Of a DNA stretch of 64,000 nucleotides, positions 8,634 to 29,278 are shown one piece after another. Position numbers and translations under genes: made by a program. The notes below the pieces were generated by a model. It worked only from the letters and a program-made list of their open reading frames with translations. It had not been told where the DNA came from and did not search any database. Origin of the DNA: Promethearchaeota archaeon Loki_b31 (GTDB lineage Archaea; Asgardarchaeota; Lokiarchaeia; Sigyniarchaeales; SOKP01); the NCBI GenBank assembly GCA_005222975.1, contig NJBI01000001.1, positions 42,571 through 106,570 on the forward strand, written 5' to 3'. Within the stretch, counting starts at the first letter, position 1. Each line of letters begins with the position of its first letter.

Positions 8634-9329
8634 ATGACCAAAAGAATACTTTTTATTGGTGATAGCATCACTGAAGGAAAAATAGGAATCGGGTATATTG
8701 ATATAATTCAACATTATTTCCCTCAATTTCAGTGTAAAAATTATGGACGCGGTGGTGATACCTTATCTGGAGTCTTTACGAGACTTTTAAAAATTTTAAA
8801 AACACAGACAGAAACATATGACATTATAGTAATTGAAGCTGGTCTCAACGATCTTTTCTTACCTTTTGTTAAAATGAAGTGGAAATTCACAAGTATTAGA
8901 AAAGTAACTCCATTAAACAAGATAAAAGACTTTTATGATAATGGATTAAAAACGATAAGTTTACATAGCAAAGCAAAGATAATATTAACTACTTTAAGTT
9001 GCTTGGGAGAAAACATAAGTTCTCCATTAAACCAAAAAAGAAGATTAGTAAATAATCAGATTAAGGAAATTGGTTCTAAACATGGTGCATATATAGCAGA
9101 TGTAAGTTCATTCTTTGATAAGATCTTAAGTAAAAGCATTTCGAGTTATAATCTCATAGATCATCCTTTAAACTTAGTTTTCGATTATTTTAGATCAAAA
9201 AGAATGAACTGGGTAGAAAAAATAAGCAGGAAAAGACGGCTAGTGTTGACTATAGATGGTGGACACCTCAATAGCAAAGGCGCATTAATTTATGCTATTG
9301 TAATATCACGAATTTTAGATTTGCTTTAA
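8634..9329 (+). CDS. SGNH/GDSL family hydrolase (lipase/esterase-like)
   Basis: Block I ILFIGDSITEG, block II GRGGDT, block III EAGLNDL, block V DGGHLN. Confidence 0.75.
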   Translation: MTKRILFIGDSITEGKIGIGYIDIIQHYFPQFQCKNYGRGGDTLSGVFTRLLKILKTQTETYDIIVIEAGLNDLFLPFVKMKWKFTSIRKVTPLNKIKDFYDNGLKTISLHSKAKIILTTLSCLGENISSPLNQKRRLVNNQIKEIGSKHGAYIADVSSFFDKILSKSISSYNLIDHPLNLVFDYFRSKRMNWVEKISRKRRLVLTIDGGHLNSKGALIYAIVISRILDLL

Positions 9330-9389: not shown

Positions 9390-10826
9390 TTACAAATTCC
9401 TTGAAGTAATAGATTTTAATTCATTAGAAAGTGTGTCATCAATAGGTTTTAAAGAAATTTTCTCAGCGAGTTTAGTCGCTTGCTCCTTTGCTCTTTTTCG
9501 TGCAGACTTAGAGCCATTCTCTTTCCAAGCGTCCCGAGACATGCGATCTATTACCGGACTAACTATAAAAAGCTCCTTTCTAAAAAGCTTTAAAGTCGTT
9601 GGATGCGAAAGTAATTCCTCTTTTTCATTGTAGTCCCTTAAAATTTCAGAAGCGAATGGAGTACCGTGATCTTCTACTCCTCTTAGGAGTCTTTTTACCA
9701 TTCCTACTATTTCGTTATCAATTACTAATTTTTCAATGCTTTGAGTGGATTCAAAATCTAACATGCCAGGTCCCGAAATCATATTAATGCCAGCAAGTCC
9801 AGCTAAAAGTGCTCCCATACCTCCTTCGAATCCTGCTTGAGCATCTGGAACTTTGGAGTCACTAAGACTCATGTAAGCATGAGTGGGCATTTTTAGAAAT
9901 TTTCCTATCTCGACATCCCCCAAGTTAATCATCATTGTTTCAATAGCTCCCATTGGAGTTGTACCTTGCTTCATATCTAATATTGCGGGTGATCCACCCC
10001 ATATCAAAGGAGCTCCAGTTTTTGCTAACTGTCCAATTGCAACTCCTGCTAAGCATTCTGCAGAGTGTTGTGTTATTGAACCAATCAAGCTTATTGGAGC
10101 GCTAGCTCCTGCTAACGGCATAGACACAAACTCAGATGGTATCATACTCTTGGCGGCATCGATAAGTGATTGAGAAGTCAGGTCTGACCACTTCAGCGGG
10201 GGACTAGGACAAACATCGAAGATCGCTAAAGGTTTCCTTGCTAAATCATCTTCTGATAATCGACAACTTAACAATAATTCTCTCATAATTGAAAAACTTT
10301 CCTTTCGAAACGTCCCGGTTACAACTGGTTTATAGCAATTAGATAATGCGATATATAACCTATGCCAATCTTGTGCGTGGTTGGGGACATCTTGATAAAC
10401 TATAGCAGTGCTTTGAGCTTCGATATACTTTAAATGTTCTACTACCTTTGAAAAACGTACGAAATCTTTTTCGAACGCGTTTCTAATCGTTCCTGTATTT
10501 TCATCTAGATATAAGATCGCTGCTGAGCCAGGATCGTAATGAACATTATCGTTCGCTAAAGTAATATGCTCTTTTCCCTCTCTATCAAATAATTTAATCT
10601 CATCCGGAACAGTTTTGAGACATCTATCTACTAAATCAGAAGGAATGAAGTATCGAGAACCCTCGTGATTAACTCCTTCGCTGTTAAATAATTCTTTAGC
10701 GTCCTCATTTTCTAAAAATATTCCTAGATTTTCTAAAATATCTTTAGCCTCATTGAATATCTTTATTTTATGATCCTCATCTAAGACATTAATTCTTGGT
10801 CTTAAAATTCCCATCCTAACATACAC
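9390..10826 (-). CDS. MttB-superfamily (trimethylamine methyltransferase family) substrate:corrinoid methyltransferase, non-pyrrolysine type
   Basis: Uninterrupted 478 aa with no in-frame TAG. The N-terminal pattern LDEDHKIKIFNEAKDILENLGIFLENEDAKELF...IPSDLVDRCLKTVP and overall length match MttB/MtgB-like proteins. Confidence 0.8.
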   Translation of the reverse strand: MYVRMGILRPRINVLDEDHKIKIFNEAKDILENLGIFLENEDAKELFNSEGVNHEGSRYFIPSDLVDRCLKTVPDEIKLFDREGKEHITLANDNVHYDPGSAAILYLDENTGTIRNAFEKDFVRFSKVVEHLKYIEAQSTAIVYQDVPNHAQDWHRLYIALSNCYKPVVTGTFRKESFSIMRELLLSCRLSEDDLARKPLAIFDVCPSPPLKWSDLTSQSLIDAAKSMIPSEFVSMPLAGASAPISLIGSITQHSAECLAGVAIGQLAKTGAPLIWGGSPAILDMKQGTTPMGAIETMMINLGDVEIGKFLKMPTHAYMSLSDSKVPDAQAGFEGGMGALLAGLAGINMISGPGMLDFESTQSIEKLVIDNEIVGMVKRLLRGVEDHGTPFASEILRDYNEKEELLSHPTTLKLFRKELFIVSPVIDRMSRDAWKENGSKSARKRAKEQATKLAEKISLKPIDDTLSNELKSITSRNL

Positions 10827-10838
10827 GCTCTCATTTTG

Positions 10839-11726
10839 TTAATTCTCTAGTGAATCTATAAGTTTTCTTATTTCTTTTATAGTTGCTGGAGACGTACCAC
10901 AGCACCCTCCCACGATTTTGGCACCTATTTGAATAATTTCGTGAATATCGCTTACGAAATCCTTTATTGGTTGGTCGTAAACGGCTCTATTGTTTTGATC
11001 GATTCTTGGTTGACCCGCGTTAGGTTTTGCCGATATGGGTTTATTAGTAAGCTCTTTTAGTTCTTTTATTAATCCTATCATTTCATCGCTTCCTAATGTA
11101 CAATTCGCTCCAATCACATCAACATTTCTATCCTCTTGTATTCGCACGCACTTTTCTAAAGAATTGCCCATAATGGTAAAAAAACCCCTTTTTGTTTTTT
11201 TGTATGTCATTGAGCTTATAATGGGTTTTTTTGAAATCTCTCTTATCGCTTTTATCGCAGCTTCCATTTCTTCAATGTCTGAGATAGTCTCGATATGCCA
11301 GAGATCTACTCCTTGTTCTAAAAATTTTACCTGTTTTACATAACTGGAAACCCATTGTTCGGCGGTTGCTTTTCCTACTGGAGGTTTAAATACACCAGAT
11401 GGGCCAATATCGCCTACAATTAAACGATTGGGAGGGCAAGCTCTTTTTATATTTTTTAAGGCGCTCTCATTTAACTCTTTAATTTGGCTTTCAATTTTAT
11501 AGCCTTGCAAATTTAAAAAGCTAGATCCAAAAGTACTTGTTTGGCACATATCTGCGCCTGCGTCGTAATAAGATTTATGTATCTCAAAAATTAAATCTGG
11601 TTGTTCGATATTAAGGGTATCGGGAAGTCTTCCTGGCGTGATTCCATGTTTAAATATCTCTGACCCCATTCCTCCGTCAAATAATATGATTTTCGAACCA
11701 TTTTTTAACCAATCGTGGAATAACAT
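10839..11726 (-). CDS. Homocysteine S-methyltransferase domain protein (MetH Hcy-binding-domain type, Zn-dependent thiol methyltransferase)
   Basis: FDGGMGSEI at the N-terminus. Zn-ligand cysteines in IGANCTLG and VGGCCGTSP. Confidence 0.8.
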   Translation of the reverse strand: MLFHDWLKNGSKIILFDGGMGSEIFKHGITPGRLPDTLNIEQPDLIFEIHKSYYDAGADMCQTSTFGSSFLNLQGYKIESQIKELNESALKNIKRACPPNRLIVGDIGPSGVFKPPVGKATAEQWVSSYVKQVKFLEQGVDLWHIETISDIEEMEAAIKAIREISKKPIISSMTYKKTKRGFFTIMGNSLEKCVRIQEDRNVDVIGANCTLGSDEMIGLIKELKELTNKPISAKPNAGQPRIDQNNRAVYDQPIKDFVSDIHEIIQIGAKIVGGCCGTSPATIKEIRKLIDSLEN

Positions 11727-11752
11727 AGCAATTTACCTCAAATAAGCGTTTT

Positions 11753-12400
11753 TTAAATTTTTAAAAGGTTCTTGACTAGATTAACAGCTTCTACGGCGCT
11801 ACCAGCAAATCCATCTGCTTTGCACTCATCTACCCACGCGTTAGAAACTGGAGCACCCCCAAGTATAACTTTGAATTTGTCTCGGATGCCTTTAGATTCG
11901 AGTATTTCTATTATCTTTTTTTGGCCGATCATAGTTGTAGTCAATAGAGCAGAAACTCCAATGATATCTGCATTCTTTTCAACAGCAATTTCGATAATTC
12001 TTTCAGCTGGAACGTCAGCGCCTAGATCATAAACTTCAAAACCGTTGGCACTCAACATTGTAGCGACAATTGTTTTACCTATTGAGTGAATGTCTCCTTC
12101 TATTGTTGCAATTACCACTTTTCCATTCGAGATTCTATCTCTCTCTGTTTCTATATGTGGAAAAAGAATCTGCATAGACTCTTGCATAATAGTCCCACCA
12201 AGCATTAATTCCGGCAGAAAAAATTCTCCTTCGTCCCATAAAGCCCCTATTTTACGGATCCCCGCTCCAAAACCTTTCTCTATTACTTCAAGAAGATTCA
12301 TATTTTCTTGAATTGCTTTATTGGCCAATTCAATAGTTTTTTCTTTATCAAGACTTACGATTGCTTCAGATATTTCTTCATAAAATTTATCATTAGACAC
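11753..12400 (-). CDS. Cobalamin-binding corrinoid protein (MtxC/MetH B12-domain type)
   Basis: B12-binding cap helices followed by a Rossmann domain. It carries GDIHSIGK (DxHxxG), SALLTTT (SxL) and ILGGAP (GG). Confidence 0.85.
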   Translation of the reverse strand: MSNDKFYEEISEAIVSLDKEKTIELANKAIQENMNLLEVIEKGFGAGIRKIGALWDEGEFFLPELMLGGTIMQESMQILFPHIETERDRISNGKVVIATIEGDIHSIGKTIVATMLSANGFEVYDLGADVPAERIIEIAVEKNADIIGVSALLTTTMIGQKKIIEILESKGIRDKFKVILGGAPVSNAWVDECKADGFAGSAVEAVNLVKNLLKI

Positions 12401-16484: not shown

Positions 16485-16748
16485 TTACTCGTCCTGATTT
16501 TCTGTGTTAAACTCAAGATTTAAACTTTCGGCAAGTTTAAACCCTACTTCAAAGAAGTTCTTCATCGATTTATAGAAGATATCTCCTATAATATCGCCTA
16601 ATTCTGCATTAGGTTCAGACGATGTCTCAATTTTTCCAGGGATATTTAATTCTTTTATAAGATCCTCTTTTCTTTGCTCTAATTCTTCGCTTAAACTGTT
16701 TAAATTTATTTGAAAATCGTTCAGTTCTGAACTTTGGCTCTTTTCCAT
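16485..16748 (-). CDS. Small acidic helical protein, unknown function (last gene of the lipid-cluster strand run)
   Basis: 87-aa ORF 27 nt downstream of the LPLAT-like gene on the same strand. Confidence 0.4.
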   Translation of the reverse strand: MEKSQSSELNDFQINLNSLSEELEQRKEDLIKELNIPGKIETSSEPNAELGDIIGDIFYKSMKNFFEVGFKLAESLNLEFNTENQDE

Positions 16749-16775
16749 AATAAAACCTCATTTTTATGTTTAATT

Positions 16776-17471
16776 TTATGCTTCTTCAATATCGGGTTGT
16801 GGTTTAAGGGAATCAATAATTCTTAATATATCCTCAGCGAGTTCATATCTCTCATCTCGATATTTTGGTCGAGATAATCGATTTTCTACCTTAAGCGGGG
16901 CCCCGATTTTTACTCTTAACCCCTGTGATTTAAACATACCTAAAATTTTCGCGTTTTCCGTGTATATTGCTATGGGGATTATAGGAGCCTTTCCAGCAAC
17001 CGCAAATTTAATGATTCCCGCCATTGCTTTCACTTGAATTTCGGGGGTAAGTTTTGATTCTGGCGTCATGGCTACAAGATCCCCAACTTCGTTAAGATAG
17101 TGGAACACCTTATCTATAGGCACGGTATCGTCCTTATCGAGAGTACTGCGAAACATGCCTAACGACTTAAGAACGGGACCGTACATTTGATTCTTCATTA
17201 GTTTATGATGAACCATAAAATGAATTCTTCGTCCTGAAACTTGACTTATAATCGCCATGTCTCTTAACGCGTTGTCGCTTATCGTCGTTAATATCGCTTT
17301 TCCTATAGTAGGTATGTTTTCCCTTCCCTCAATTTTTAAGTCTGCGAATGCCGTTAAACCAAAGTTTCCTAAACCTTTGGTAACTGCGTAGAAAATATCT
17401 TGCATAAGATCCTTACTAAGCATCTTATCTTTTCCTTTCGTTTCGTTCTCCTCGGAAGATGTTTCAACCAT
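16776..17471 (-). CDS. LPLAT (PlsC-like) acyltransferase-fold protein with degenerate catalytic motifs
   Basis: Collinear with PlsC: LKIEGRENIPTIGKAILTT..., later VAMTPESK, then GIIKFAVAGKAPIIPIAIY. The HX4D block reads ISDNALRD (no His) and the FPEGTR block reads TPESKL. Confidence 0.6.
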   Translation of the reverse strand: MVETSSEENETKGKDKMLSKDLMQDIFYAVTKGLGNFGLTAFADLKIEGRENIPTIGKAILTTISDNALRDMAIISQVSGRRIHFMVHHKLMKNQMYGPVLKSLGMFRSTLDKDDTVPIDKVFHYLNEVGDLVAMTPESKLTPEIQVKAMAGIIKFAVAGKAPIIPIAIYTENAKILGMFKSQGLRVKIGAPLKVENRLSRPKYRDERYELAEDILRIIDSLKPQPDIEEA

Positions 17472-17485
17472 CTTTTTTCCCTCGT

Positions 17486-17680
17486 TTATAGTTTGTCTAT
17501 GAAATTATTAACTTCCTCCATCCGTCTCTCGTAATATTCCTTTAACTCTTTTTCGGAAACAAATGAAGGGATTACTTTTTCTAAATAAATATCAAATATT
17601 GTCGATAATTTTGTTTTATGCTGCAAGGACTCGAGAAATTCTCCGCCCAAGTCCTTTAATTGCTTAAAAAATTCTGTCAT
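17486..17680 (-). CDS. Small helical protein, unknown function
   Basis: 64-aa ORF 14 nt upstream of the LPLAT-like gene. It has no recognisable motif. Confidence 0.35.
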   Translation of the reverse strand: MTEFFKQLKDLGGEFLESLQHKTKLSTIFDIYLEKVIPSFVSEKELKEYYERRMEEVNNFIDKL

Positions 17681-17841
17681 TTTGCTTCTCTTTTATTAAA
17701 AATTGGACAATATTTTAATAACTTTAGTAGATATGTTTTTTCTTATTTTAATCAAATATTCGTTTATCTAATTTAAAGGTTGTAAATCCAATAATAGTTT
17801 GAAAAGTATGATATCAAAAGATTATAATATTAAACTCGAAA

Positions 17842-18867
17842 TTAATCTACTTGATCCCATTTACCACAACGAGAGCCCCAGCGCGCTATAATTTTATTTC
17901 CCTCTTGAGGCATCTTTACTTGGACTATTTCGCAATTATTGGGACAGTCTCCGCAATTAAACGCTGAGGTTGTGAATTCAATTTCTGATACTTCGAGTCC
18001 TCGAAATACAGTTTGATGTTCGTGCTCTAAATAGAAATCTCTAACTAAAATTGCCATTCCTAAAGCCCCCATTAGGACGTTATATTTAGGAACAATTACT
18101 TTGCAACCTAAATGTCTTTCAAATGCTTCAATGATCCCTTCGTTGTAAGAAACGCCACCTTGGAACACAATGGGTTCTTCTAAGTCTTTACCCTTGCCTA
18201 CATTATTCATATAATTGCGAACAAGAGAATCGCATAAGCCTGCAATAATATCCTCCTTGGTGTAACCCGCGTTTTGCTTGTGAATCATATCGGATTCTGC
18301 GAATACAGTGCATCTTCCCGCAATACTCACAGGATTTTTTGATTTTATAGCGTAAGCGCCAAACTCCTCTATAACAATCCCAAGCCTCGCTGCTTGATGA
18401 TCGAGAAAGGAACCCGTTCCCGCAGCGCATACAGAATTCATCGCAAAATCTACAATTATTCCGTCCCGTAGAATGATAATTTTCGAATCTTGACCGCCAA
18501 TTTCTAATATCGTTCTTACATCGGGATAGATAGTCTGTGCCGCAACAGCGTGGGCAATTATCTCAGTTTTAGCGAGATCTGCACCAACGATTGCTTTTGT
18601 CAAATACCGTGCTGAACCTGTGGTACCACAACAACGTATCGCGTATTCGCCTAAATTTTCGCTTTGTTCTATGTTATCGCGTAACTCTGCCATTCCTGCC
18701 TTGGCTGAGTCGATGGGAGAACCTCTATTTCGTAAAAATACGCTAGTAAGTAAATTTCCATCTGTATCCATTAGAACAAATTTGCAACTCACGCTTCCTA
18801 TGTCAATACCAAGGAAAGCATCTTTTGTTTTTCCCTCTTTAACAACTTTTTCCTTAACTTCTACCAT
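17842..18867 (-). CDS. BcrAD/BadFG (HgdC-type) ATP-dependent [4Fe-4S] activase with C-terminal Cys-rich extension
   Basis: GIDIGSVSCKFVLMD, EIGGQDSK, CAAGTGSFLD, GRCTVFAESD and FQGGVSYN, including both HgdC-type cluster cysteines. The C-terminal CGDCPNNCEIVQV...WGSRCGKW resembles the linker found in fused activase-DUF2229 proteins. Confidence 0.85.
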   Translation of the reverse strand: MVEVKEKVVKEGKTKDAFLGIDIGSVSCKFVLMDTDGNLLTSVFLRNRGSPIDSAKAGMAELRDNIEQSENLGEYAIRCCGTTGSARYLTKAIVGADLAKTEIIAHAVAAQTIYPDVRTILEIGGQDSKIIILRDGIIVDFAMNSVCAAGTGSFLDHQAARLGIVIEEFGAYAIKSKNPVSIAGRCTVFAESDMIHKQNAGYTKEDIIAGLCDSLVRNYMNNVGKGKDLEEPIVFQGGVSYNEGIIEAFERHLGCKVIVPKYNVLMGALGMAILVRDFYLEHEHQTVFRGLEVSEIEFTTSAFNCGDCPNNCEIVQVKMPQEGNKIIARWGSRCGKWDQVD

Positions 18868-18885
18868 ATAATCTCACCTTTATCA

Positions 18886-20076
18886 TTAAACCGAATTTTG
18901 AATTAATTGAACGCATTCATTATAAAATAAATCGCCATAATGCGGATAAATCTTTTTATTACCATTTGCTATGAATTTGGCGTTATTTTCAATTTCTTTA
19001 TTCCTACGACCATACATTAGGTCAGAAAATGCTTCTAACCTAGTCCTGAAGCCAGCCAATCCGCTCTGCTCGTCGAAAGAGAAGTAAATAATAGGAAGGT
19101 CGTATATTCCCTTAAGTTTATTAGTTATAATCGTTCGAGCCGTCACTTCCGGCATACATAAGAACGGATATTGATGAACGAATCCATCAAATCCCGCTTG
19201 AGCTTTGTCTATATATTCCCCTAGCACCCATTGGCATTCCCCGCCAATATCCATCGGAACATAAGGTCGTGAAAGGTGTTCCAACCACTTTCTGTGATAA
19301 TTTAAATGGAATTTATGGACAACCCAGTCGTATAAGCTTAAGCTCTGGTGTACTTCAATGTTCATCTCACCCAGCTTTCTACGGATATCTAAGTTTACGT
19401 AGGGTTCCAAACTAATGTGAATCTCTCCCGAAACCCCAACCCGTAGAGGATTTCGGGTTTTATCTGTATCTAAATTGCTAAAATCTTGCTTAATAACGCT
19501 TTTGAATTTTTTCAATTCTGGGAGCGTATTAGTTTGATCAAGCTTATTTAATAAGTTTTTAATTAAATCCGTCGTATCCCCCTGATTGCGCTCGTAAGCT
19601 CGGAAGATACCTTCAGCAGTTTGAATATCATTTAATAGCTTAGCTTTTTTTATGAAAAAAATAACAGCCTTAACGAATTTTGTATACATAAACAAATCTT
19701 TTCGACCACTAACTTCTTGAAGAGTTTTGACCCATTTGAAATCAAGTAAATCTGCTTGGTCTAAAGGAATTACAGTGATGTCTTTATAACCCATATCTTT
19801 TAAAATGCGTTCTTGGACGCTAGCATAAAAGCCAAATCTACACGGCCCGCAATCAATTGCCATGATCAGCGTATCTGCTCCTTTTTCTATAGCATTCACG
19901 AAATCCCCAATAGTCGCTTTAAACGGGAAGCACACAAATTCGGGGGAATACTTGACTCCGATTTTAATTGCTTCTCGATTCGTTGGATCTGGAATAATTA
20001 CATCTAGACCAAGGCTTGTAAATAAGGTTTTGAAGGCTACCCAGTTGGGGCCCATATTGGGAAAAGAAATTATCAT
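18886..20076 (-). CDS. Acyl-CoA dehydratase activase-related protein (HgdB/DUF2229-like Fe-S subunit), copy B
   Basis: FPNMGPNWVAFKTLFTSLGLDVIIPDPTNREAIKIGVKYSPEFVCFPFK and AIDCGPCRFGFYA are typical of the C-terminal module of activase-related / PlsA-type proteins. Confidence 0.7.
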   Translation of the reverse strand: MIISFPNMGPNWVAFKTLFTSLGLDVIIPDPTNREAIKIGVKYSPEFVCFPFKATIGDFVNAIEKGADTLIMAIDCGPCRFGFYASVQERILKDMGYKDITVIPLDQADLLDFKWVKTLQEVSGRKDLFMYTKFVKAVIFFIKKAKLLNDIQTAEGIFRAYERNQGDTTDLIKNLLNKLDQTNTLPELKKFKSVIKQDFSNLDTDKTRNPLRVGVSGEIHISLEPYVNLDIRRKLGEMNIEVHQSLSLYDWVVHKFHLNYHRKWLEHLSRPYVPMDIGGECQWVLGEYIDKAQAGFDGFVHQYPFLCMPEVTARTIITNKLKGIYDLPIIYFSFDEQSGLAGFRTRLEAFSDLMYGRRNKEIENNAKFIANGNKKIYPHYGDLFYNECVQLIQNSV

Positions 20077-20321
20077 TTCTTGAAAAAATCCTCAAGTTAA
20101 TAGTCAGTATCTTTGTTTAAAGAATTTAACTTAATTTTACTCAATCAAGTATTTGATTAAATAAAAAATTACCCAATACAAACAGATTATCAATTGTATG
20201 ATAATTTTAATAAAAAAACTGAGTAAAATTAATAAATAAATTGCATAGAAAAATTGAATTATAAGATTATTTCGTTTGATTTTTTAAAATGGTTTATAAA
20301 AAATAGTTAATGGTTATTTCA

Positions 20322-21398
20322 TTAAGCAGATTTAATCGTTAATTTATTTCTTTTCCCAACTGTTAACCCCTTTTTCTTTCTTCGGATCATTTCGACAAAA
20401 CTTTCTACTCTTGTGAGCAATCCGGCTTCCCCGCTGTGCTCGTCCATTATAATTTCTAAAAAGGGAAGTCCTACAATTTTCATGTCTCTCATGATCAGTT
20501 CAGAGATAAGGCTATCTGGTCCGCATGCGAAGCTGATTAAGAAAATTACGCCATCTATTTCGTCGCGTCCTTTAGTAAGGAAAAATCGAATAGCCTGCAT
20601 AATTTCCTCTTCGTGTCTCCAATAATTTTGTAATTTTGCCCCTCTGGGGTTCACTATAACGGGCTTCTTGAAAATCGATTCTGGCAGATTTTCTATGGTA
20701 ATGTGATCAACTCCTTGGTCTTTCAATTTTTTTTGAAAATCGAGGTTAATAAAAGTATCAAATATATTATAACCATGCCCTAATAGCAAAAATCGTATAT
20801 CTCCTTCGCTTTTTCTTTTTGGTAAGGTAAAAGGGCGATTTCTTTCGACTAACCTTAAAGCGTGGTTAACTGAGGCGCCCTCTCTAAGAAACTCGTGATA
20901 ATCGTCGAAATATTTTTGCGCTTCTTTATAAGCATTTAAGGCTTTGCTTTGGCTTTTCCCTAGTTGCTTTCCGAGTTCAACGGCAGCTGTCGATATTGGA
21001 AACTCTTTAACATTTACTTCAAAATTTAAAATCCTTGGAACGCCAGGTAGAATTTTAATCACATCTGGTAAAGACAAAAATTTAGGGCAAAAGTACGAAT
21101 CTTTTACTTCCGAAACATACCTAGGCACAAAAACAAAGTCTAAATCAGGATGATCTTTTACTAACCTTAAGAGTTGACCGTAATATATCTTGACTGGAAT
21201 ACACAACTCTCCGAATCCGTGTGTTACGCCCTCCTCAACGATTTTCTTGTTTGTAAGGGGACTTATAACGATTTCAGCGTCCAGTTCTTCCAGTAGTTTT
21301 TTCCAAAATGGAAAATATCTATAAAAATGAAGTGCCCTTGGTATCCCTACTTTGATCCGTTTCTTCTCTGTTTGTTGAAGTTCTTCCATTAATTCCAC
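20322..21398 (-). CDS. Acyl-CoA dehydratase activase-related protein (HgdB/DUF2229-like Fe-S subunit), copy A
   Basis: KVGIPRALHFYRYFPFWKKLLEELDAEIVISP closely matches the IGIPRAL..Y..YPFW..FF..LG motif that follows the activase domains in fused bacterial proteins. Also ELCIPVK, YFCPKF and FACGPDS. Confidence 0.7.
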   Translation of the reverse strand: MELMEELQQTEKKRIKVGIPRALHFYRYFPFWKKLLEELDAEIVISPLTNKKIVEEGVTHGFGELCIPVKIYYGQLLRLVKDHPDLDFVFVPRYVSEVKDSYFCPKFLSLPDVIKILPGVPRILNFEVNVKEFPISTAAVELGKQLGKSQSKALNAYKEAQKYFDDYHEFLREGASVNHALRLVERNRPFTLPKRKSEGDIRFLLLGHGYNIFDTFINLDFQKKLKDQGVDHITIENLPESIFKKPVIVNPRGAKLQNYWRHEEEIMQAIRFFLTKGRDEIDGVIFLISFACGPDSLISELIMRDMKIVGLPFLEIIMDEHSGEAGLLTRVESFVEMIRRKKKGLTVGKRNKLTIKSA

Positions 21399-21410
21399 TT
21401 AAATTCTCGT

Positions 21411-23096
21411 TTAGGCATCTGGGCTGTCGTATAAGAGCAAATCTTTAATTTGAGCCATCATATTATCCGTTAAACGCTTTAATTCGGCGTAATCTGGCAT
21501 TGGTTTGCCCCAATGTTTTTTATGTTCCATGAATGGGGGTCCTGCTTTTAATATAGACCCCCTATAGAAGTTCAACATCTTAGCGTGTTTTGGGTACGTA
21601 TCTTCTGTACCCGTAATTCCTACTAATAAGATGGGTACTTGCTTTTCAATAGCTAATCGCATAGCACCTGTGTGACCCTCTAAGAGTTCACCACCGCCTG
21701 GATTGGTCGTTCCTTCGGGGTACATCATAACCAATTCTCCGTTATCAAGAAGATGTTTAGCGTAATTATACGAATCGACATCGTGTTGTCCCCTTTTTAA
21801 GGGAAACGCGTGGTGGGTTCTAACCCAAGCGTTAACGATTGGGAATTTAAACAAACCCTGTTTCGCCATTTGGTAAAGAATTCGTTTTTTATGGTACGTC
21901 ATACAAGTCGCGGTCATAATTACGTCCCACTCAGAATTGTGGTTGGTACAAAAAATTGCTGCCCCGGTATCAGGAATATATTTTTCAAAGTCAATTGCTT
22001 TATATGGCATCATTAAGTTGCCTAAATTATGGACTGCCCACCCATGCATAGCCTGAGATGCTGCTGCGTATTGTTTGCGTAGTCCGAATGCTTCTAACGA
22101 TTTTATGAAGGAGTACCAGAGGTCGTCAACAAGTTGTAGAGCACCCATTCCTACATCTTTTAAATAACTCAAAGCTGAATTTGACTTTTTGGGTTTTTCA
22201 ACATCTTCAGGGGAACCAATCGATAGCTCTTCTTCCTTTTTCTTTTTCCTTGTGTCCACAATGACATATTCTCTTAAATCAAGAACAATCTGTCTTAATT
22301 CATTGGTTAGTCTCTTAATTTCTTCGTAAGAAACATCGTCAATATTATACTTATCGTAGTAAATCGGATCACCTACACGTACTTTGACTTGAGTTGGTTT
22401 CATGACCAATTTACCTTTTGGTAACGCATTTCTAGACCCAATCACTGCCATTGGAACAATCGGCACACCCATTTCAATCGCGAGTCGAACTGCCCCCGTT
22501 TTAAACTCTCCTAGTTCCCACCCAGTTTCCTCCCTAGACCGGGTACTTTCAGGGAAAATGCCTACCCAGTCTCCGCTTCTGAGAATCTCTTTGGCAGTCT
22601 CCCAGCCTTGCTCAGGATTCTCTCGATCTATTTTAAAGGCTCCTAAATTCGTAAAAAGCGTTTTAACTAAAGGAGTTTTAAAATTATCCAATTTACTCAT
22701 GTAATGGATTCTTCTTTGACAAGCAGCACCGTAGAAGAATGGGTCCAAATGAGACTCGTGGCTTCCTGCAAGAATGCCTGGCCCGTATTCCGGAAATAAA
22801 TTCCCTAAAGGATATTCTGCTTTAAAATTCCAGAACAATCGGGCAAAAAACTTTATATAAACATATGCCGTCCACCATTGGAGTTTTCCCTCTATTTCTC
22901 CAATGTTCAATCGGTCAATAGCTTGACGATAGAGGTCGTTTAATGGATCGATTGGATTATATTTTAAAATTTTATACATCGAGTTTTGGTGTCGTTTACC
23001 GAACTCTAAATCTTCCTTTTCTTTATCTTCAGTAGTTTTTATAATACTCGTATCTACTGAAGTTTTATATTCTTCTTTAAGCACCATTAATTTCAT
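21411..23096 (-). CDS. Tandem double LPLAT (PlsC-type) acyltransferase, both domains with intact catalytic motifs
   Basis: Domain 1 has H113-ESHL-D118 (GSHESHLDP, nt about 22741-22770), FPESTRS and VPIVPMAV. Domain 2 has H386-NSEW-D391 (CTNHNSEWD), YPEGTT and VPILLVGI. Confidence 0.8.
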   Translation of the reverse strand: MKLMVLKEEYKTSVDTSIIKTTEDKEKEDLEFGKRHQNSMYKILKYNPIDPLNDLYRQAIDRLNIGEIEGKLQWWTAYVYIKFFARLFWNFKAEYPLGNLFPEYGPGILAGSHESHLDPFFYGAACQRRIHYMSKLDNFKTPLVKTLFTNLGAFKIDRENPEQGWETAKEILRSGDWVGIFPESTRSREETGWELGEFKTGAVRLAIEMGVPIVPMAVIGSRNALPKGKLVMKPTQVKVRVGDPIYYDKYNIDDVSYEEIKRLTNELRQIVLDLREYVIVDTRKKKKEEELSIGSPEDVEKPKKSNSALSYLKDVGMGALQLVDDLWYSFIKSLEAFGLRKQYAAASQAMHGWAVHNLGNLMMPYKAIDFEKYIPDTGAAIFCTNHNSEWDVIMTATCMTYHKKRILYQMAKQGLFKFPIVNAWVRTHHAFPLKRGQHDVDSYNYAKHLLDNGELVMMYPEGTTNPGGGELLEGHTGAMRLAIEKQVPILLVGITGTEDTYPKHAKMLNFYRGSILKAGPPFMEHKKHWGKPMPDYAELKRLTDNMMAQIKDLLLYDSPDA

Positions 23097-23101
23097 CCTC
23101 C

Positions 23102-23884
23102 CTAGGATTTTATCTCAATCCTATTTTGAGTATTTGAATTTGATAAATTTTTATTTTCAATTATTTTAATTAATTCATCTAACGAGTCAATCAATAAGCT
23201 TGGGTTAAATTTCGCCAACATCTCTCTTTTACTTACTCCGCTCGCAACACCAATCGTCCAAACTCCAGCTTCTCTTCCTGCTTCAATATCTGAAGGCATA
23301 TCTCCAATCATTACAAATTCCTTCAATTTGCAGGATTTATAACTTTCAAAAACAGGGTTTAACGCGTTTGGGTCGGGTTTAAGAGCGGGAAGTAGATCTG
23401 CTCCAAAAATTCCTTTAAAAAAGCTTTTTACTTTTTTTTCTTCTAAATGAGGAATTATATTCTTAGTCAGGTTGTGAGAGACAATAAATAAATCGTAAGT
23501 TTTTTTATATTTATTAATAAATTCCGTTGCTTCTGGATAAAACGATGCGTCTTTCGCGTACTCTAGATAACGCGTGAAAATTTTCGTTGCTATTCGTAGT
23601 TTTTTTAAATATGTTAGCGGTTGGAGCGATTCTATGTATTTAAACAAATTAAAAGACTCCAATACGATTCTTGGAAGCGGAAGCCCTTGAATTGTCTCCA
23701 TTAAAGCCCCTATTTCTTGCATCGTGCTTTCAATGTCAGCTGAAATGTGTTTTTCCTCGTATATTTCTTCTATTGCGTCCTTAAGCGTTTTTCTGATATC
23801 GAGGATAGTTCCGTCAAAATCAAAGATAATTCCTCGAATCGTTCCATTTTGAAGCCGTTTAATTAATTGATTGTCAGCAAGCAT
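23102..23884 (-). CDS. HAD-superfamily hydrolase (subfamily IA, phosphatase-like)
   Basis: Motif I IIFDFDGTILD, motif II VSHN, motif IV GDMPSDIEAG. It lies 5 nt upstream of the double acyltransferase. Confidence 0.8.
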   Translation of the reverse strand: MLADNQLIKRLQNGTIRGIIFDFDGTILDIRKTLKDAIEEIYEEKHISADIESTMQEIGALMETIQGLPLPRIVLESFNLFKYIESLQPLTYLKKLRIATKIFTRYLEYAKDASFYPEATEFINKYKKTYDLFIVSHNLTKNIIPHLEEKKVKSFFKGIFGADLLPALKPDPNALNPVFESYKSCKLKEFVMIGDMPSDIEAGREAGVWTIGVASGVSKREMLAKFNPSLLIDSLDELIKIIENKNLSNSNTQNRIEIKS

Positions 23885-24125
23885 TATTTATTAAAAAAGG
23901 GCAAAAATTTTAATAACTTTGTATTTATATAGATGAATTAAGTTTACTTAAATGAATTTCTATATAAAAACCTAATCATACTGATCATACTGTATTATTA
24001 TACCTCTTAGTTTTTATTTAATTGAATTTTATGTAATTTCTAACATCTCTTTTTAATATTAATTCTTTAATATGTGAACTTTATATGTAAAACCACAAAA
24101 AATATATTATATAGAGGTTATTAGT

Positions 24126-24248
24126 ATGCAAACGCAGAATGAATTCCAAAACGATAGGTATCGTCACGCTGATTTTCTTCAAACTATTCCACAAACAAAT
24201 AAGATATATAAAAAATTGTTTCTAAAAAGAAAGCCCAAACCCAAGTGA
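24126..24248 (+). CDS. Candidate small basic protein (40 aa), not in the ORF track
   Basis: ATG 24126 is preceded by AGAGGT (24113-24118) at 7-nt spacing, the same SD as gene 57593. It translates to MQTQNEFQNDRYRHADFLQTIPQTNKIYKKLFLKRKPKPK with TGA at 24246-24248. Confidence 0.2.
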   Translation: MQTQNEFQNDRYRHADFLQTIPQTNKIYKKLFLKRKPKPK

Positions 24249-24373
24249 TATAAAAACTAATATTCTTGCTTCTTTTTAATATGTAGTTAGTTTCTTTTTT
24301 TAAAACAATAAAACATTTATATTTCATGGAGTTGTAATAACTTTAAATATAAATTAATAATACAGAAAAAGAA

Positions 24374-24793
24374 TTGACAAATATGTCAGAAAATAAACTT
24401 GGTAAGGTAAAAGAAGGAACTTATCCGGAGGGAGTTTTTAATCTTTATAACCCATTAAATTCAAATGATAAATTTAAAGAGAAATTCGCTAAAGAATCCT
24501 TTAAGATTTTATTAAATCCAAAAGATGGTGAATATGCCGCTTTAATAACTGTTGACAAAGGAACAGTTTCTGTACAGGGAATTGAAAACAAAGATAAGAA
24601 GGACTTAACAGATGAAAAACTTGGTTGGGATGGCATGATGAAAACAACAATAGCACTATTTGATGAGATTGGTGAGGGAAAACTGTCGCAAAGCGATATC
24701 ATAAAAAAAGTTGTAGCCCGCAAAATAAAAATGAAAGCTCCAAAATTTTTAATGAAGTTAGACGAAATGGCGGCCTTTTTAAAAAGTGACTAA
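24374..24793 (+). CDS. SCP2 (sterol carrier protein 2)-like lipid-binding domain protein
   Basis: The pattern AALITVDKGTVSVQG...D...TTIALFDEIGEGKLSQSDIIKKVVARKIKMKAPKFLMKL matches the SCP2 fold consensus (..dG.v.v..g...D...s...f..i..Gkl.......g..kikG....l.kl). Confidence 0.5.
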   Translation: MTNMSENKLGKVKEGTYPEGVFNLYNPLNSNDKFKEKFAKESFKILLNPKDGEYAALITVDKGTVSVQGIENKDKKDLTDEKLGWDGMMKTTIALFDEIGEGKLSQSDIIKKVVARKIKMKAPKFLMKLDEMAAFLKSD

Positions 24794-26310: not shown

Positions 26311-26865
26311 ATGGAAAATATCAATTCTAATAATTCAGCAGATTCTATAAGCTACAATCGCATATTATGGCCTATTTATTTTCTTAATGGGTTCCAAAGT
26401 ATTGCCTGGGGCGGGATTATCTTTCTTATCGTACCAATATCAAGAATTATGTGGCCAACTGAGCCAACTCACGCTTTAGAAATGGGAACATTAATTACAG
26501 TGCTATCATGGTCTGCTTCGATTTCAGGATTAGTATTTGGACACTTAATTGATAAATACTCTCGTAAAAAGATAATCGTTATTATTTCAATATTTAGGGG
26601 GCTTGCGATAATAATGCTTGGATTTGCATTGGAGGGCGGCGGTTCGTCAGCTTGGATATATTTCTTAGTTTTCATAAGTATTTTTGGGATGTTTGCGGGA
26701 TTAAGTTGGCCCGCCGTAATATCTTTGTCTAACGATATCGTTCCTAAAGCTTTTCGTTCGCGTTTTTTTGGCGTTTATGAGATAGTTCGCTCTCTTACTA
26801 TGACCTTTGGGTTTTTAATTGGAGCTTTTTTAGTGCAGAACGGGCTGTGGAGACAGTATTTTTGA
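26311..26865 (+). CDS. MFS transporter, N-terminal 6-TM half. It ends at an in-frame TGA and is frame-continuous with 26950..27762
   Basis: GHLIDKYSRKKII (MFS loop 2-3 motif). TGA at 26863-26865. The next 28 codons up to 26950 are open in the same frame and encode the expected TM7 region. Confidence 0.6.
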   Translation: MENINSNNSADSISYNRILWPIYFLNGFQSIAWGGIIFLIVPISRIMWPTEPTHALEMGTLITVLSWSASISGLVFGHLIDKYSRKKIIVIISIFRGLAIIMLGFALEGGGSSAWIYFLVFISIFGMFAGLSWPAVISLSNDIVPKAFRSRFFGVYEIVRSLTMTFGFLIGAFLVQNGLWRQYF

Positions 26866-26949
26866 GGTACAGGATTAGGTATTTTAATTTGTGCCCTAAT
26901 TTTTGCAATTCATAACGACGAGCCTAAAAGAGGAGCTCAACAAGAAGAG

Positions 26950-27762
26950 TTGTTACATATCCTTAAAAAGAAAGATGTCAATTACAACTTTAAAATCAAT
27001 CGGGAGACTATGCTTAAAACAATGTTAAGTAAAACTAATAAAGTTGCCTTAATTGAAGGAATATTTACTCAGATTCTAATGGGCTCTATCAACTTTTTAA
27101 TTCTTACCCTTATCCAAAATGAACCTCACAATATTTCCGAATTTTCAACTAGTATTTTCATGATTACTTTTGGGTTAACGGGAGGAATTGTCGGACAGTT
27201 ACTATTAGCAAGGTTAAGCGATAAATTAGCTAAAAAGCGGCCTATTATAAGAATACCAATTATTATTATAGCTATTATTGGGGGTCTATTCACTTTTATT
27301 CTTTTCTTTTTTATTCCCTGGCCCCATTTGACTATTGAGCAAGGGAAAGATGTTGCTTTCTTAATGGCACTCCCAATAATTTGGTTAATGGGTATTATGT
27401 TCTTCTCATCAAGATCTATTTTTTCTCTATATATGGTTAACCAAAGTCCATTATTACAAGAAATAAATTTGCCAGAAGCACAAGGTCAAATAGTTTCATG
27501 GAATCAATTTTTAGAAAATTTCGGGAGAGGTATGGGCCCCTTATTAAGTGGGATTCTATTGGCTGTGACAAGCATGAATTATCAATCCACAATTTTAATA
27601 ATTGCACTATGTATTCTTCCCGGAGTAATATTATGGGGGTTTGCGATAAAATGGTTTCCTTCTGATGCTTATAACATAAGAGAGATATTAAAGGGAAGAG
27701 TTGACATTTTAGAATCAAATGAAGGGATGTCATCTCCCTCAGATCACCAAATAAAACCTTAA
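26950..27762 (+). CDS. MFS transporter, C-terminal half (same frame as 26311..26865; the TTG start is an ORF-calling artefact)
   Basis: ARLSDKLAKKRPII (second MFS loop motif). Collinear with the paralog at 27860..29278. Confidence 0.55.
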   Translation: MLHILKKKDVNYNFKINRETMLKTMLSKTNKVALIEGIFTQILMGSINFLILTLIQNEPHNISEFSTSIFMITFGLTGGIVGQLLLARLSDKLAKKRPIIRIPIIIIAIIGGLFTFILFFFIPWPHLTIEQGKDVAFLMALPIIWLMGIMFFSSRSIFSLYMVNQSPLLQEINLPEAQGQIVSWNQFLENFGRGMGPLLSGILLAVTSMNYQSTILIIALCILPGVILWGFAIKWFPSDAYNIREILKGRVDILESNEGMSSPSDHQIKP

Positions 27763-27859: not shown

Positions 27860-28834
27860 TTGAAGTTAGAAATGGAATTAAACGATTCTCATCAATCTTA
27901 TAATAAATTAATTTGGCCAGTATATTTACTCAACGGATTTAATAGTATAGCATTTGCGGGCATAATTATTCTAATGGTACCATTGTCTTCGCTTATTTGG
28001 CCAGGAGAAGATTATCACGCGCTAGAGATGGGAATTTTAATGACCACACTTTTATGGACTTCTTCTCTGTCAGGTTTATTCCTTGGTAGGCTTATTGATA
28101 AGTATTCACGAGTAAAAATCTTATTAATTATATCCATTGCCAGAAGTTTTTGCATGATTATGCTCGGGTTCGCTATTGCCGGTCAAGGTATACTGACATG
28201 GTGGTATTTTTTTTTATTTGTTCTAATTTTTGCTCTCTTTGCTGGAGGAAGTTATCCTGCCATAGTTTCACTATCTAACGATATTGTTCCAATAAAACAT
28301 CGCTCTAAATTCTTTGGATATTTTGGTATTTTTGGATCCGTCTTTATGATGCTTGGTTTTCTAATATCTGGTGCTCTAGTGCAGTTTGGGTATTGGAGAT
28401 TATATTTTTTAAGTATAGGAATTGCGGTTCTTCTTTCGGGCTTAATATTTTTTTTTTATGTTAAGGAACCAAAAAGGGGTGTTCAAAGCATTTTATTACG
28501 AGATGTACTTAAAGATCGATCGATTGAATATGATTTTAAGAGGGATAAAGAATTAATGCGTAGAACTATGCTATCTCGCACTAATATTGCAGCTTTAATT
28601 GAGGGAATATTTACCAATGTATTTATGGGAAGTTTGGATATGATTATTTTACCTTATTTACAAACCCCTCCACATAATCTCTCTCCACTAATAACAGGAT
28701 TATTTGTCGTTATTTTTGGAGTTATTGGACGCGTTATAGGGCAAATTTTACTCGCTCGAGTGTCAGATAAGTTAGCAGAGAAAAATGATGTAAGAAGGAT
28801 TGTTTTTATAATATTTTCTTTAGTAGGAGGGTAA
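27860..28834 (+). CDS. MFS transporter paralog, N-terminal two thirds. It ends at an in-frame TAA and is frame-continuous with 28850..29278
   Basis: Collinear with 26311..27762 (LIWPVYLLNGFNSIAFAGIIILMVPLS versus ILWPIYFLNGFQSIAWGGIIFLIVPIS). The likely true start is ATG 27872. TAA at 28832-28834. Confidence 0.6.
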   Translation: MKLEMELNDSHQSYNKLIWPVYLLNGFNSIAFAGIIILMVPLSSLIWPGEDYHALEMGILMTTLLWTSSLSGLFLGRLIDKYSRVKILLIISIARSFCMIMLGFAIAGQGILTWWYFFLFVLIFALFAGGSYPAIVSLSNDIVPIKHRSKFFGYFGIFGSVFMMLGFLISGALVQFGYWRLYFLSIGIAVLLSGLIFFFYVKEPKRGVQSILLRDVLKDRSIEYDFKRDKELMRRTMLSRTNIAALIEGIFTNVFMGSLDMIILPYLQTPPHNLSPLITGLFVVIFGVIGRVIGQILLARVSDKLAEKNDVRRIVFIIFSLVGG

Positions 28835-28849
28835 ATTACTTTTGTTTTA

Positions 28850-29278
28850 ATGTTTTTCGTACCATTGCCTTTTTTAACGCCTGAAGAAGGAGCAAACATC
28901 GTTCTATTCTTTTCACTTCCTTTAACATATGTAATGGGTATTTTAATTTTAAGTTCTGACGCTATATCTTCTTTATACATGGTTAATCAACCACCGATCC
29001 TACAAGAAATAAATCTTCCAGAAGCTCAAGGCCAAATTGTTTCATGGAATCAATTCTTAGAGAATATCGGTTATGGTATGGGGCCTTTAATCGCAGGTAT
29101 TTTCATATCCATTTTCGGACAGAATTATAAGATTAGTGCTGTGATAATAACTATTTTTGTAATTCCTGGTATAATTTTGTGGACATTGTCTTGTAATTGG
29201 TATACACAAGATAAAGAAAGAATTAGGACTATACTAAGTGAACGAGCAACAATTTTGAAATCAAGAAATAAAAACTAA
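28850..29278 (+). CDS. MFS transporter paralog, C-terminal third (same frame as 27860..28834)
   Basis: LYMVNQPPILQEINLPEAQGQIVSWNQFLEN is nearly identical to the paralog. Only 5 sense codons separate it from the TAA. Confidence 0.55.
   Translation: MFFVPLPFLTPEEGANIVLFFSLPLTYVMGILILSSDAISSLYMVNQPPILQEINLPEAQGQIVSWNQFLENIGYGMGPLIAGIFISIFGQNYKISAVIITIFVIPGIILWTLSCNWYTQDKERIRTILSERATILKSRNKN

Follow-up and report, generated by a model that had tools for sequence, protein, structure and literature searches.

We analysed a 64,000-nucleotide stretch of the genome of Promethearchaeota archaeon Loki_b31 (contig NJBI01000001.1, positions 42,571 to 106,570), referred to here as the window, and in particular a gene cluster in which a DUF2229-type Fe-S reductase, divided over several polypeptides, is encoded among genes for glycerolipid-type acyltransferases (Table 1). 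A check of the open reading frames (ORFs) found nine on one strand and one oriented divergently, with coordinates and strands matching those of an initial annotation that had been made from the letters alone; the domains named in that annotation (HAD, double PlsC, two DUF2229 proteins, an HgdC-type activase and a degenerate PlsC) were all recovered in Pfam and NCBIfam searches. In what follows, PlsC2 denotes the tandem acyltransferase and PlsCl the His-less, LPLAT-like protein; A and B are the reductase subunits and Act is the activase; s64 and s87 are the 64-aa and 87-aa ORFs, and p139 is the divergently encoded protein with a predicted SCP2 fold.

Table 1. Genes and features of the reductase–acyltransferase cluster, with positions in the window.
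Feature	Position	Strand	Characteristics
HAD-family phosphatase, 260 aa	23102..23884	-	DFDGT nucleophile motif; first cluster gene
PlsC2, 561 aa, two LPLAT/PlsC-type domains	21411..23096	-	PF01553 x2, HX4D x2
Subunit A (Red1-type)	20322..21398	-	DUF2229 + C-terminal HGD-D region
A/B junction spacer	20077..20321		AT-rich, oligo-T runs
Subunit B (Red2-type), 396 aa	18886..20076	-	N-terminal part of DUF2229
HgdC-type ATPase activase (Act), 341 aa	17842..18867	-	Single ATPase domain, BcrAD_BadFG
s64, 64 aa	17486..17680	-	Conserved, no Pfam family
PlsCl, 231 aa, LPLAT fold	16776..17471	-	Weak PF01553
s87, acidic, 87 aa	16485..16748	-	Conserved motif, no family match
p139, predicted SCP2 (sterol/lipid carrier) fold	24383..24793	+	Predicted structure + Foldseek

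The only DUF2229 proteins of shown function are PlsA/PlsR and Ger, which convert a glycerolipid ester to a vinyl or alkyl ether (PMC13159169, PMC9702350). PlsA/PlsR acts on the sn-1 acyl ester of diacyl phospholipids, giving a vinyl ether, and Ger yields saturated 1-O-alkyl glycerol ethers. Subunit A matched DUF2229 (PF09989) with E = 9e-43 and 146.8 bits against a cut-off of 29.4, and B matched it over its N-terminal part (2e-11, 44.3 bits), whereas the matches to HGD-D (PF06050) fell under the cut-off of 28.4 in both subunits, being weak and C-terminal in A (27.6 bits) and faint in B (16.2 bits). The ATG at 21389 is likely to be the true start of A; the orthologues begin near there. A contains exactly three universally conserved cysteines (C66, C104 and C292) and B has three invariant cysteines at equivalent places (C49, C79 and C307), and both triads are invariant across the Lokiarchaeal (Loki), bacterial split and PlsA/PlsR-type sequences. 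Enzymes of the HgdAB/HadBC class ligate a [4Fe-4S] cluster through three cysteines, and the triads of A and B match this arrangement. When compared with the PDB, ∼60 C-terminal residues of A matched HadC and the double-cubane protein DCCP (E = 0.002-0.006) and B gave no match; a model of A built from a 32-sequence Loki alignment had a pLDDT of 49, which is too low for a fold search.

Act matched BcrAD_BadFG with E = 3e-48 (165 bits) and TIGR00241 with 199 bits (cut-off 125), and, among proteins of known structure, HadI (4eht, 4e-37) and HgdC (3e-34). The initial annotation had pointed to both cluster cysteines and to a Cys-rich tail in this protein; the alignments agreed, as the bridging-cluster residues C147 and C186 are universal and the four cysteines of the tail (C305xxC308xxxC312…C334) are invariant in the Loki and bacterial split activases. 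The tail aligned with the linker that follows the second activase domain in the fused proteins of Listeria, Haliovirga, Fusobacterium and Collinsella.

Upstream of A, PlsC2 matched PF01553 twice (1e-50) and TIGR00530 with 154 bits (cut-off 103), and has the HX4D motifs HESHLD at residue 113 and HNSEWD at residue 386, both of which are retained in 117 of 118 orthologues. Its best 120 homologues were all Lokiarchaeal tandem proteins of ∼555 aa, usually annotated as 1-acyl-sn-glycerol-3-phosphate acyltransferase, and PlsC2 is very likely to be the ‘PlsC’ of earlier Lokiarchaeota surveys (PMC6737245). A Kyte–Doolittle (KD) scan of PlsC2 found no membrane anchor of the kind typical of bacterial PlsC (maximum KD19 1.65, within the catalytic fold), and by hydropathy scanning no protein of the cluster has a hydrophobic segment of membrane-helix type. 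The first gene encodes a HAD phosphatase (Pfam HAD_2 2e-24, Hydrolase 8e-18).

In PlsCl the match to PF01553 was weak (1e-7) and the HX4D motif is absent, its place being taken by S[DKE]N..RD, with a His-to-Ser change in 19 of 19 aligned sequences. PlsCl is present with B–Act–s64 in 14 of the 17 loci that carry Act; it is probably a pseudo-enzyme or a lipid-binding adaptor, and a role as substrate-binding partner is plausible. The two small ORFs, s64 and s87, gave no family match in Pfam searches. Orthologues of s64 (18 distinct sequences, 54-96% identical to the window protein) share a nearly invariant core, KLSTIFD…EKVIPxFVSEK…YYE+RMEE, and a homologue trails the activase in the nearest bacterial module, L090 (L090:10248-10343), where the ORF after the activase begins …KARLSTLFDFVLEKAIPF and the s64 counterpart in the window reads …KTKLSTIFDIYLEKVIPSF; the two are clearly homologous. 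BLASTP found no match between s64 and a 61-aa ORF of a second bacterial module, L091, and a bacterial homologue is claimed for L090 alone. The L090 homologue indicates that the ancestral unit was A–B–Act–s64, and s64 is probably an unannotated fourth, or accessory, subunit of split reductase systems. Homologues of s87, recognisable by the motif GD[IL]FY.S[MV]K..F, occur in 7 loci (28-90% identity), always after PlsCl.

The divergent gene had been described as encoding an SCP2-like protein at 24374. The ATG at 24383 is likely the real start, and p139 gave no Pfam match at E ≤ 10 and no sequence or profile match in the PDB, but its AlphaFold2 (AF2) model (pLDDT 81.3) supported the fold: the top 31 Foldseek matches were all SCP2-type (probability 0.99-1.00, TM 0.46-0.69), led by AF1534 (3bn8, E = 1e-5). 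Structure prediction thus assigns p139 the SCP2 alpha/beta fold. Two of its relatives carry the JGI name ‘putative sterol carrier protein’, and the gene adjoins the cluster only in closer relatives.

The cluster is widely conserved among Lokiarchaeia. A is 64-96% identical to proteins of 80 species-level genomes, nearly all of them titled Promethearchaeota or Promethearchaeia, a few with other Asgard labels and one with a bacterial label; the nearest comes from the metagenome-assembled genome (MAG) 33X4, and the homologue in Lokiarchaeum GC14_75 is Lokiarch_08770. A look-up of the exact window A sequence found no entry. The relatives of A bear out the Asgard-type archaeon suggested in the initial annotation. 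One locus with the full Loki cluster and an A that is 84% identical (L057, DATKTW010000084.1) was deposited as ‘Candidatus Nanopelagicaceae bacterium’, and is probably a mis-binned or mislabelled MAG contig. We scored gene order in the 80 species loci, using as denominators those with enough sequence on the side in question. In 63 of 73 loci PlsC2 was found on the same strand and no more than 300 nt upstream of A, and in 70 of 73 it lay within 10 kb; HAD was encoded upstream, also on the same strand, in 52 of 60, so that the linkage to LPLAT genes seen in the window is kept in related genomes. Downstream, 37 of the 80 contigs stop less than 1.5 kb after A; among the 33 loci with at least 5 kb on this side, B was present in 21, the activase in 17, s64 in 15 and PlsCl in 14.

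Six of these 33 loci have, in place of B–Act, an 865-aa Act-Act-DUF2229 protein and a 462-aa Red2-type protein, i.e. the PlsA/PlsR layout or ‘Ger architecture 2’; the 865-aa protein is a member of the PlsA-type clade described below. An enzyme of PlsA architecture can therefore occupy the place beside PlsC2–A, which is the strongest contextual argument for the reduction of ester lipids. In three of the 33 loci, and in L003/L004, three genes are inserted at the A|B junction, encoding a FAD_binding_4–DUF2229 fusion, an additional activase and an additional B; in some relatives incomplete copies of the 3' end of A flank this cassette. MAG 33X4 carries, at the same junction, 645 nt of inserted sequence with an ORF of ∼95 aa. 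The A|B junction is a rearrangement hotspot in relatives (L003, L007, L009, L010 and L036), and the window has its minimal form. The fusion in L003 (L003:11098-13527, outside the window) is an 809-aa protein in which a VAO/PCMH-type flavoprotein domain is joined to a DUF2229 Red1 module, and to our knowledge no such fusion has been described before. A link between it and alkyl-dihydroxyacetone-phosphate synthase (AGPS) was considered and rejected, as the nearest relatives of the flavin domain were cytokinin dehydrogenase and DprE1 and AGPS matched only at E = 3e-5.

The initial annotation listed gaps of 5, 12 and 18 nt, but the spacing is not tight over the whole block. The intergenic gaps are, in order, 5, 12, 245, 18, 161, 14 and 27 nt, the two largest being the AT-rich A|B spacer with its oligo-T runs and the gap between Act and s64. 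The A|B spacer is probably a transcription-unit boundary, and with the other gaps it makes two or three transcription units more likely than one operon. The suggestion that the block is G+C-rich, and might therefore be of bacterial origin, fared better in its first part than in its second. Mean gene G+C was 0.380 in the cluster and 0.327±0.037 in the other 53 ORFs of the window, and G+C at third codon positions was 0.338 in the cluster and 0.267 elsewhere (Mann-Whitney p = 2e-4); the shift amounts to ∼1.5 standard deviations, and several unrelated enzyme genes of the window reach similar values. Base composition is weak evidence for a foreign origin because the cluster is old in the lineage and the shift is small, and we rejected recent horizontal transfer as the sole cause of the excess on the same grounds.

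To relate the reductase to PlsA/PlsR we used PlsA-type stand-ins obtained by tblastn from a plasmid collection that contains mislabelled chromosome pieces. These were fused genes of 1475 aa from Listeria monocytogenes, of 1593 aa from Collinsella (preceded by a TetR regulator, an arrangement known from pls genes; PMC9702350), of 1449 aa from Haliovirga and of 1282 aa from Paraclostridium, and a 975 + 404-aa pair from Fusobacterium with the PlsA+PlsR layout. In phmmer comparisons, residues 6-336 of A aligned end to end with residues 659-975 of the Listeria protein, its first reductase module (Red1); residues 11-340 of Act, including the tail, aligned with the second activase domain (Act2) and linker (partner residues 312-636); and B aligned with the second reductase module (Red2), scoring 33-72 bits against PlsR-type or Red2 sequences. 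There is therefore a modular correspondence with the Listeria, Collinsella, Fusobacterium and Haliovirga proteins, in which Act plus its tail equals Act2 plus linker, A equals Red1 and B equals Red2.

We then placed A and B in a bootstrapped neighbour-joining tree from Poisson distances, a distance method, whose taxa did not include the sequences of C. perfringens, E. faecalis and T. maritima. The window A grouped with the other Loki A sequences (bootstrap 100) and then with L090 as sister (78); a Loki paralogue fused to a flavin domain branched next (86), and all of these fell within a clade of stand-alone or A+B-fused proteins (76). The sister clade (85) held the Listeria, Collinsella, Fusobacterium, Haliovirga and Paraclostridium proteins together with the 865-aa Loki protein. 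The B-type modules divide in the same way as A. An exhaustive HMMER search gave a consistent picture: the best 150 representatives were proteins of ∼330 aa or A+B fusions of ∼700-770 aa, and no 1400-aa fusion was among them. The clades also differ near the cluster cysteines, where B has PE..C.P.K in the split clade versus HN..C.P.[LI] in the PlsR type, and A has C[PK] versus C[PVA][VIY] in the PlsA type. These comparisons place Act, A and B in the DUF2229 family yet outside the PlsA-type clade. The relationship to PlsA/PlsR proposed in the initial annotation therefore stands as a module-by-module homology and has to be revised as to closeness, since the Loki proteins belong to a separate split clade with ∼24% identity to the PlsA type.

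The nearest non-Loki relatives are the bacterial modules L090 and L091 (48% and 41% identity for A), which have the same A–B–Act order and sizes; L090 scored 332, 487 and 472 bits for A, B and Act, respectively, and B thus stands at 487 bits to its L090 counterpart versus 33-72 bits to the PlsR type. Monoglobus pectinilyticus (UL127_RS11265-75) also has the A–B–Act order, with A at 32%. A scan of metagenomes with a 9-sequence query alignment returned 80 further bacterial loci (L095-L174), 37-45% identical to the first sequence of the alignment (representative P0136); because of this query the sample is one sub-clade, mainly clostridial. The A–B–Act order was nearly universal in the 80 loci. 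The split into three ORFs is the usual arrangement in a large clade of anaerobic bacteria and is not peculiar to the window genome. The 120 nearest neighbours of the bacterial split modules were mostly GerA, PALP, SpoVA and ABC-transporter genes, which may be a functional hint for the bacterial modules or plain clostridial gene order. In about 10 of the metagenome loci the activase gene is followed, in the same orientation, by one for a pyridoxal-phosphate-dependent enzyme of the PALP family (∼452 aa).

We interpret the cluster, with a confidence that stops a little short of even, as a Lokiarchaeia-wide set of cytosolic or peripheral proteins that make and reductively modify acyl-glycerol lipids, in which the split enzyme would form ethers from the esters supplied by PlsC2. 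PlsC2, with its two intact LPLAT domains, would esterify two acyl chains onto a glycerol-phosphate-type backbone, and the HAD phosphatase would take the phosphate off the precursor or the product. A·B would serve as the reductase core, with one [4Fe-4S] cluster held by the three cysteines of each subunit, and would be reduced by the activase, presumably a homodimer, as ATP hydrolysis injects a low-potential electron. In the HgdC/benzoyl-CoA reductase (BCR) class it is established that ATP hydrolysis by the activase drives a low-potential electron into a partner [4Fe-4S] enzyme. By analogy with PlsA/PlsR and Ger, A·B would then reduce the sn-ester carbonyl to an alkenyl or alkyl ether, while s64, PlsCl, s87 and, in some lineages, the SCP2-fold protein may hold or deliver the lipid substrate. 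A bolder version, in which most Lokiarchaeia possess a self-contained soluble pathway that turns fatty-acyl glycerol ester lipids into alkyl or alkenyl (plasmalogen-like) ethers via a split PlsA/Ger branch, strikes us as somewhat unlikely.

The SCP2-fold neighbour, the retention of both HX4D motifs and the preservation of PlsC2–A synteny even where A has diverged to 64% identity all count in favour of ester-to-ether conversion. Because Act, A and B belong to the separate split clade, it is reasonable to derive this conversion from the Loki-specific gene context and not from family assignment. Several observations weigh against it. A scored only 50-60 bits against the fused proteins (58 bits and ∼24% identity for Listeria Red1) compared with 332 bits against L090; A and B fall in the split clade (76), apart from the PlsA-type clade (85); and the bacterial split clade is functionally uncharacterised. 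The literature holds that Ger and PlsA are indistinguishable by sequence (PMC13274423) and calls the role of PlsA homologues without an activation domain unclear (PMC13274423, PMC11868695). A Loki-derived PlsC hidden Markov model found no match within ±8 kb of the reductase genes in the 80 bacterial metagenome loci, which represent one largely clostridial sub-clade, and PF01553 was not among the 25 commonest Pfam families of the 120 nearest neighbours. There is no membrane anchor anywhere in the cluster, which is unusual for PlsC. Finally, cultured Lokiarchaea have yielded no report of a non-isoprenoid ether or ester lipid, and the strain examined was MK-D1 (PMC7015854). MK-D1 has isoprenoid chains only and its genome is stated to be without ester-lipid genes (Imachi et al. 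2020, PMC7015854), and its lipidome is therefore no test of the cluster. The glycerolipid substrate and the ester-to-ether reaction put forward in the initial annotation thus draw support from the Loki gene context, and lose some from the 80 bacterial split loci without acyltransferase neighbours.

A rival reading is that the split A·B·Act catalyses some other ATP-driven one-electron reduction, e.g. acyl dehydration or dehydroxylation or the reduction of another lipid-linked carbonyl, which would be lipid- or acyl-related but would yield no ether; the acyltransferases would then attach the substrate to, or the product from, glycerol or another carrier. The distinctness of the split clade from the PlsA type, down to the residues near the cluster cysteines, is what such an enzyme would lead one to expect, and the split clade co-occurs with PlsA/Ger-type genes in Bacillota, where its role has been called unclear (PMC13274423). 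Some Loki genomes also hold PlsA-type genes, and one would not expect two enzymes to duplicate a single activity. However, DUF2229 proteins have no other known chemistry, PlsA/PlsR has the same modular layout throughout and the same Cys ligands, and the tight linkage in Loki to a glycerolipid-type acyltransferase suits an ester substrate; we regard a different reduction as a genuine possibility but a doubtful one. Ester-to-ether chemistry could also serve salvage, with exogenous bacterial or eukaryotic ester lipids from the sediment being re-acylated by PlsC2, dephosphorylated by HAD and reduced by A·B·Act, and with SCP2 and PlsCl acting as carriers. The cluster proteins are all soluble and some are lipid-carrier-like, genes for a GDSL lipase/acylhydrolase (8634-9329) and for MFS transporters are found close by in the window, and LPLATs, strictly speaking, use lysolipids. 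Since no uptake or lipase gene is conserved within the cluster, we consider salvage improbable, and as its Fe-S chemistry would be the same it differs from biosynthesis in physiological role and not in mechanism.

It is very improbable, by contrast, that A and B constitute an ordinary enzyme of amino-acid fermentation, of the 2-hydroxyacyl-CoA dehydratase or BCR type, that happens to lie beside an acyltransferase gene. Act is a typical HgdC/HadI homologue (4e-37) and Lokiarchaea do ferment amino acids (PMC7015854), but the resemblance of A to HadC and DCCP extends over only ∼60 C-terminal residues at E ∼0.002, B resembles nothing in the PDB, and HGD-D lies below its Pfam cut-off where DUF2229 lies far above. 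The adjacency of PlsC2 and A in 63 of 73 species argues that their association is not a coincidence. The subunits accordingly do not nest inside bona fide dehydratases or benzoyl-CoA reductases, a placement that would have spoken against the reading in the initial annotation.

Elsewhere, the window encodes an Arf/Roc-type small GTPase, an acyl-CoA dehydrogenase, a 3-hydroxyacyl-CoA dehydrogenase and an MttB-corrinoid methyltransferase set. The latter lies at 9390-12400 on the minus strand as a row of genes for a 478-aa methyltransferase of the MttB family that lacks an in-frame stop, a protein of the homocysteine S-methyltransferase type and a corrinoid protein that binds B12, which together form a methyl-transfer module. 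The GDSL-family gene is ∼7 kb from the cluster and might bear on lipid turnover; its adjacency was not conserved in the loci examined. Two tandem MFS-transporter paralogues (26311-27762 and 27860-29278) each contain one in-frame stop in an otherwise intact frame: TGA at 26863-26865, where 95%-identical orthologues have Trp, and TAA at 28832-28834, where orthologues have Ser. They look like fresh pseudogenes or base-call errors and unlike recoding, since the stop codons are not the same and stand in place of different residues.

Parts of this picture have been published before. Ger homologues are known in Lokiarchaeota, including P. syntrophicum, and in Heimdallarchaeota, and bacterial-type ether lipids have been speculated for Asgard archaea (Sahonero-Canavesi et al. 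2022, PMC13159169); PlsC in Loki genomes has also been published (PMC6737245), and PlsY is likewise known there. Searches of full-text literature, including for DUF2229 in archaea and for glycerol ester reductase in Asgard, found no description of the operon linkage, the tandem soluble PlsC, the pseudo-LPLAT or the distinct split clade. What is new here is therefore the recruitment of a split DUF2229 reductase into a Lokiarchaeia-specific acyltransferase cluster. Whether Asgard archaea make non-isoprenoid lipids is a central open point of the ‘lipid divide’ and of the eukaryogenesis debate, for which the evidence so far has consisted of isolated homologues of single genes in MAGs (PlsC, PlsY, Ger-like). 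The cluster is compact, with eight or nine soluble proteins, is conserved in over 60 species, and makes the question of ester or ether lipids in Asgard archaea directly testable. If the bolder version of our interpretation is correct, lipid chemistry of the non-isoprenoid, bacterial or eukaryotic type would be present within the archaea most closely related to eukaryotes, and the widespread bacterial split modules would add a third class to the ester-to-ether reductases. The large and unstudied bacterial split DUF2229 clade may in addition be miscounted in surveys of ‘Ger/PlsA homologues’.

We compared the cluster with the known systems that it most resembles. With the 2-hydroxyacyl-CoA dehydratases (HgdAB/HadBC with HgdC/HadI), the benzoyl-CoA reductases and DCCP, the Loki module shares the class of activase, and probably also the principle of ATP-coupled electron injection. 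The likeness of A to HadC and DCCP points to a distant fold relationship across its C-terminal region; it differs from these enzymes in lacking full-length similarity, in belonging to another Pfam family and in having no pointer to a CoA-ester substrate. PlsC2 resembles PlsC and other LPLATs in having PF01553 and an HX4D motif in both halves and a TIGR00530 score above the cut-off. It departs from them in being a tandem duplication within one anchorless polypeptide that is confined to Lokiarchaeia, and in that a second, His-less copy, PlsCl, accompanies the Loki reductase.

The closest functional comparison is with PlsA/PlsR (CPE1194/1195 in C. perfringens; fused in Enterococcus and Listeria), with which the Loki module has in common BcrAD_BadFG, DUF2229 and a C-terminal HGD-D part, an activase with a CxxCxxxC…C segment followed by the Red1 and Red2 modules, three invariant cysteines in each reductase module, and hosts that are strict anaerobes on both sides. 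However, in PlsA a single chain comprises Act1–Act2–Red1, and Red2 is either part of it or supplied by PlsR, whereas in Loki there is a single stand-alone activase and the reductase is divided over three proteins together with a 64-aa partner. The Loki proteins are, moreover, ∼24% identical to the PlsA-type representatives and form a separate clade, and their module sits between LPLAT genes, a setting not reported for bacterial pls genes, i.e. these have not been described as fused into acyltransferase operons. Ger (Tmari_0479 in Thermotoga maritima and SHJ90043 in Desulfatibacillum alkenivorans) belongs to the same DUF2229/activase family and has a fused BBD(H)… architecture (PMC13159169), whereas the window genes give, in the same domain letters, B alone, then D(H), then D(H), on three chains; the Ger-like layout in Loki is that of the 865-aa gene of other Loki genomes and not that of the window genes.

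The bacterial split modules agree with the Loki module in subunit sizes, gene order, Cys motifs and activase tail and, in L090, also in the small ORF; the sampled bacterial loci differ in having no acyltransferase, HAD or SCP2 neighbours. The sequence comparisons therefore suggest that the A–B–Act–s64 core is derived from, or common to, a widespread bacterial split module, and that its joining with acyltransferase genes is specific to Loki.

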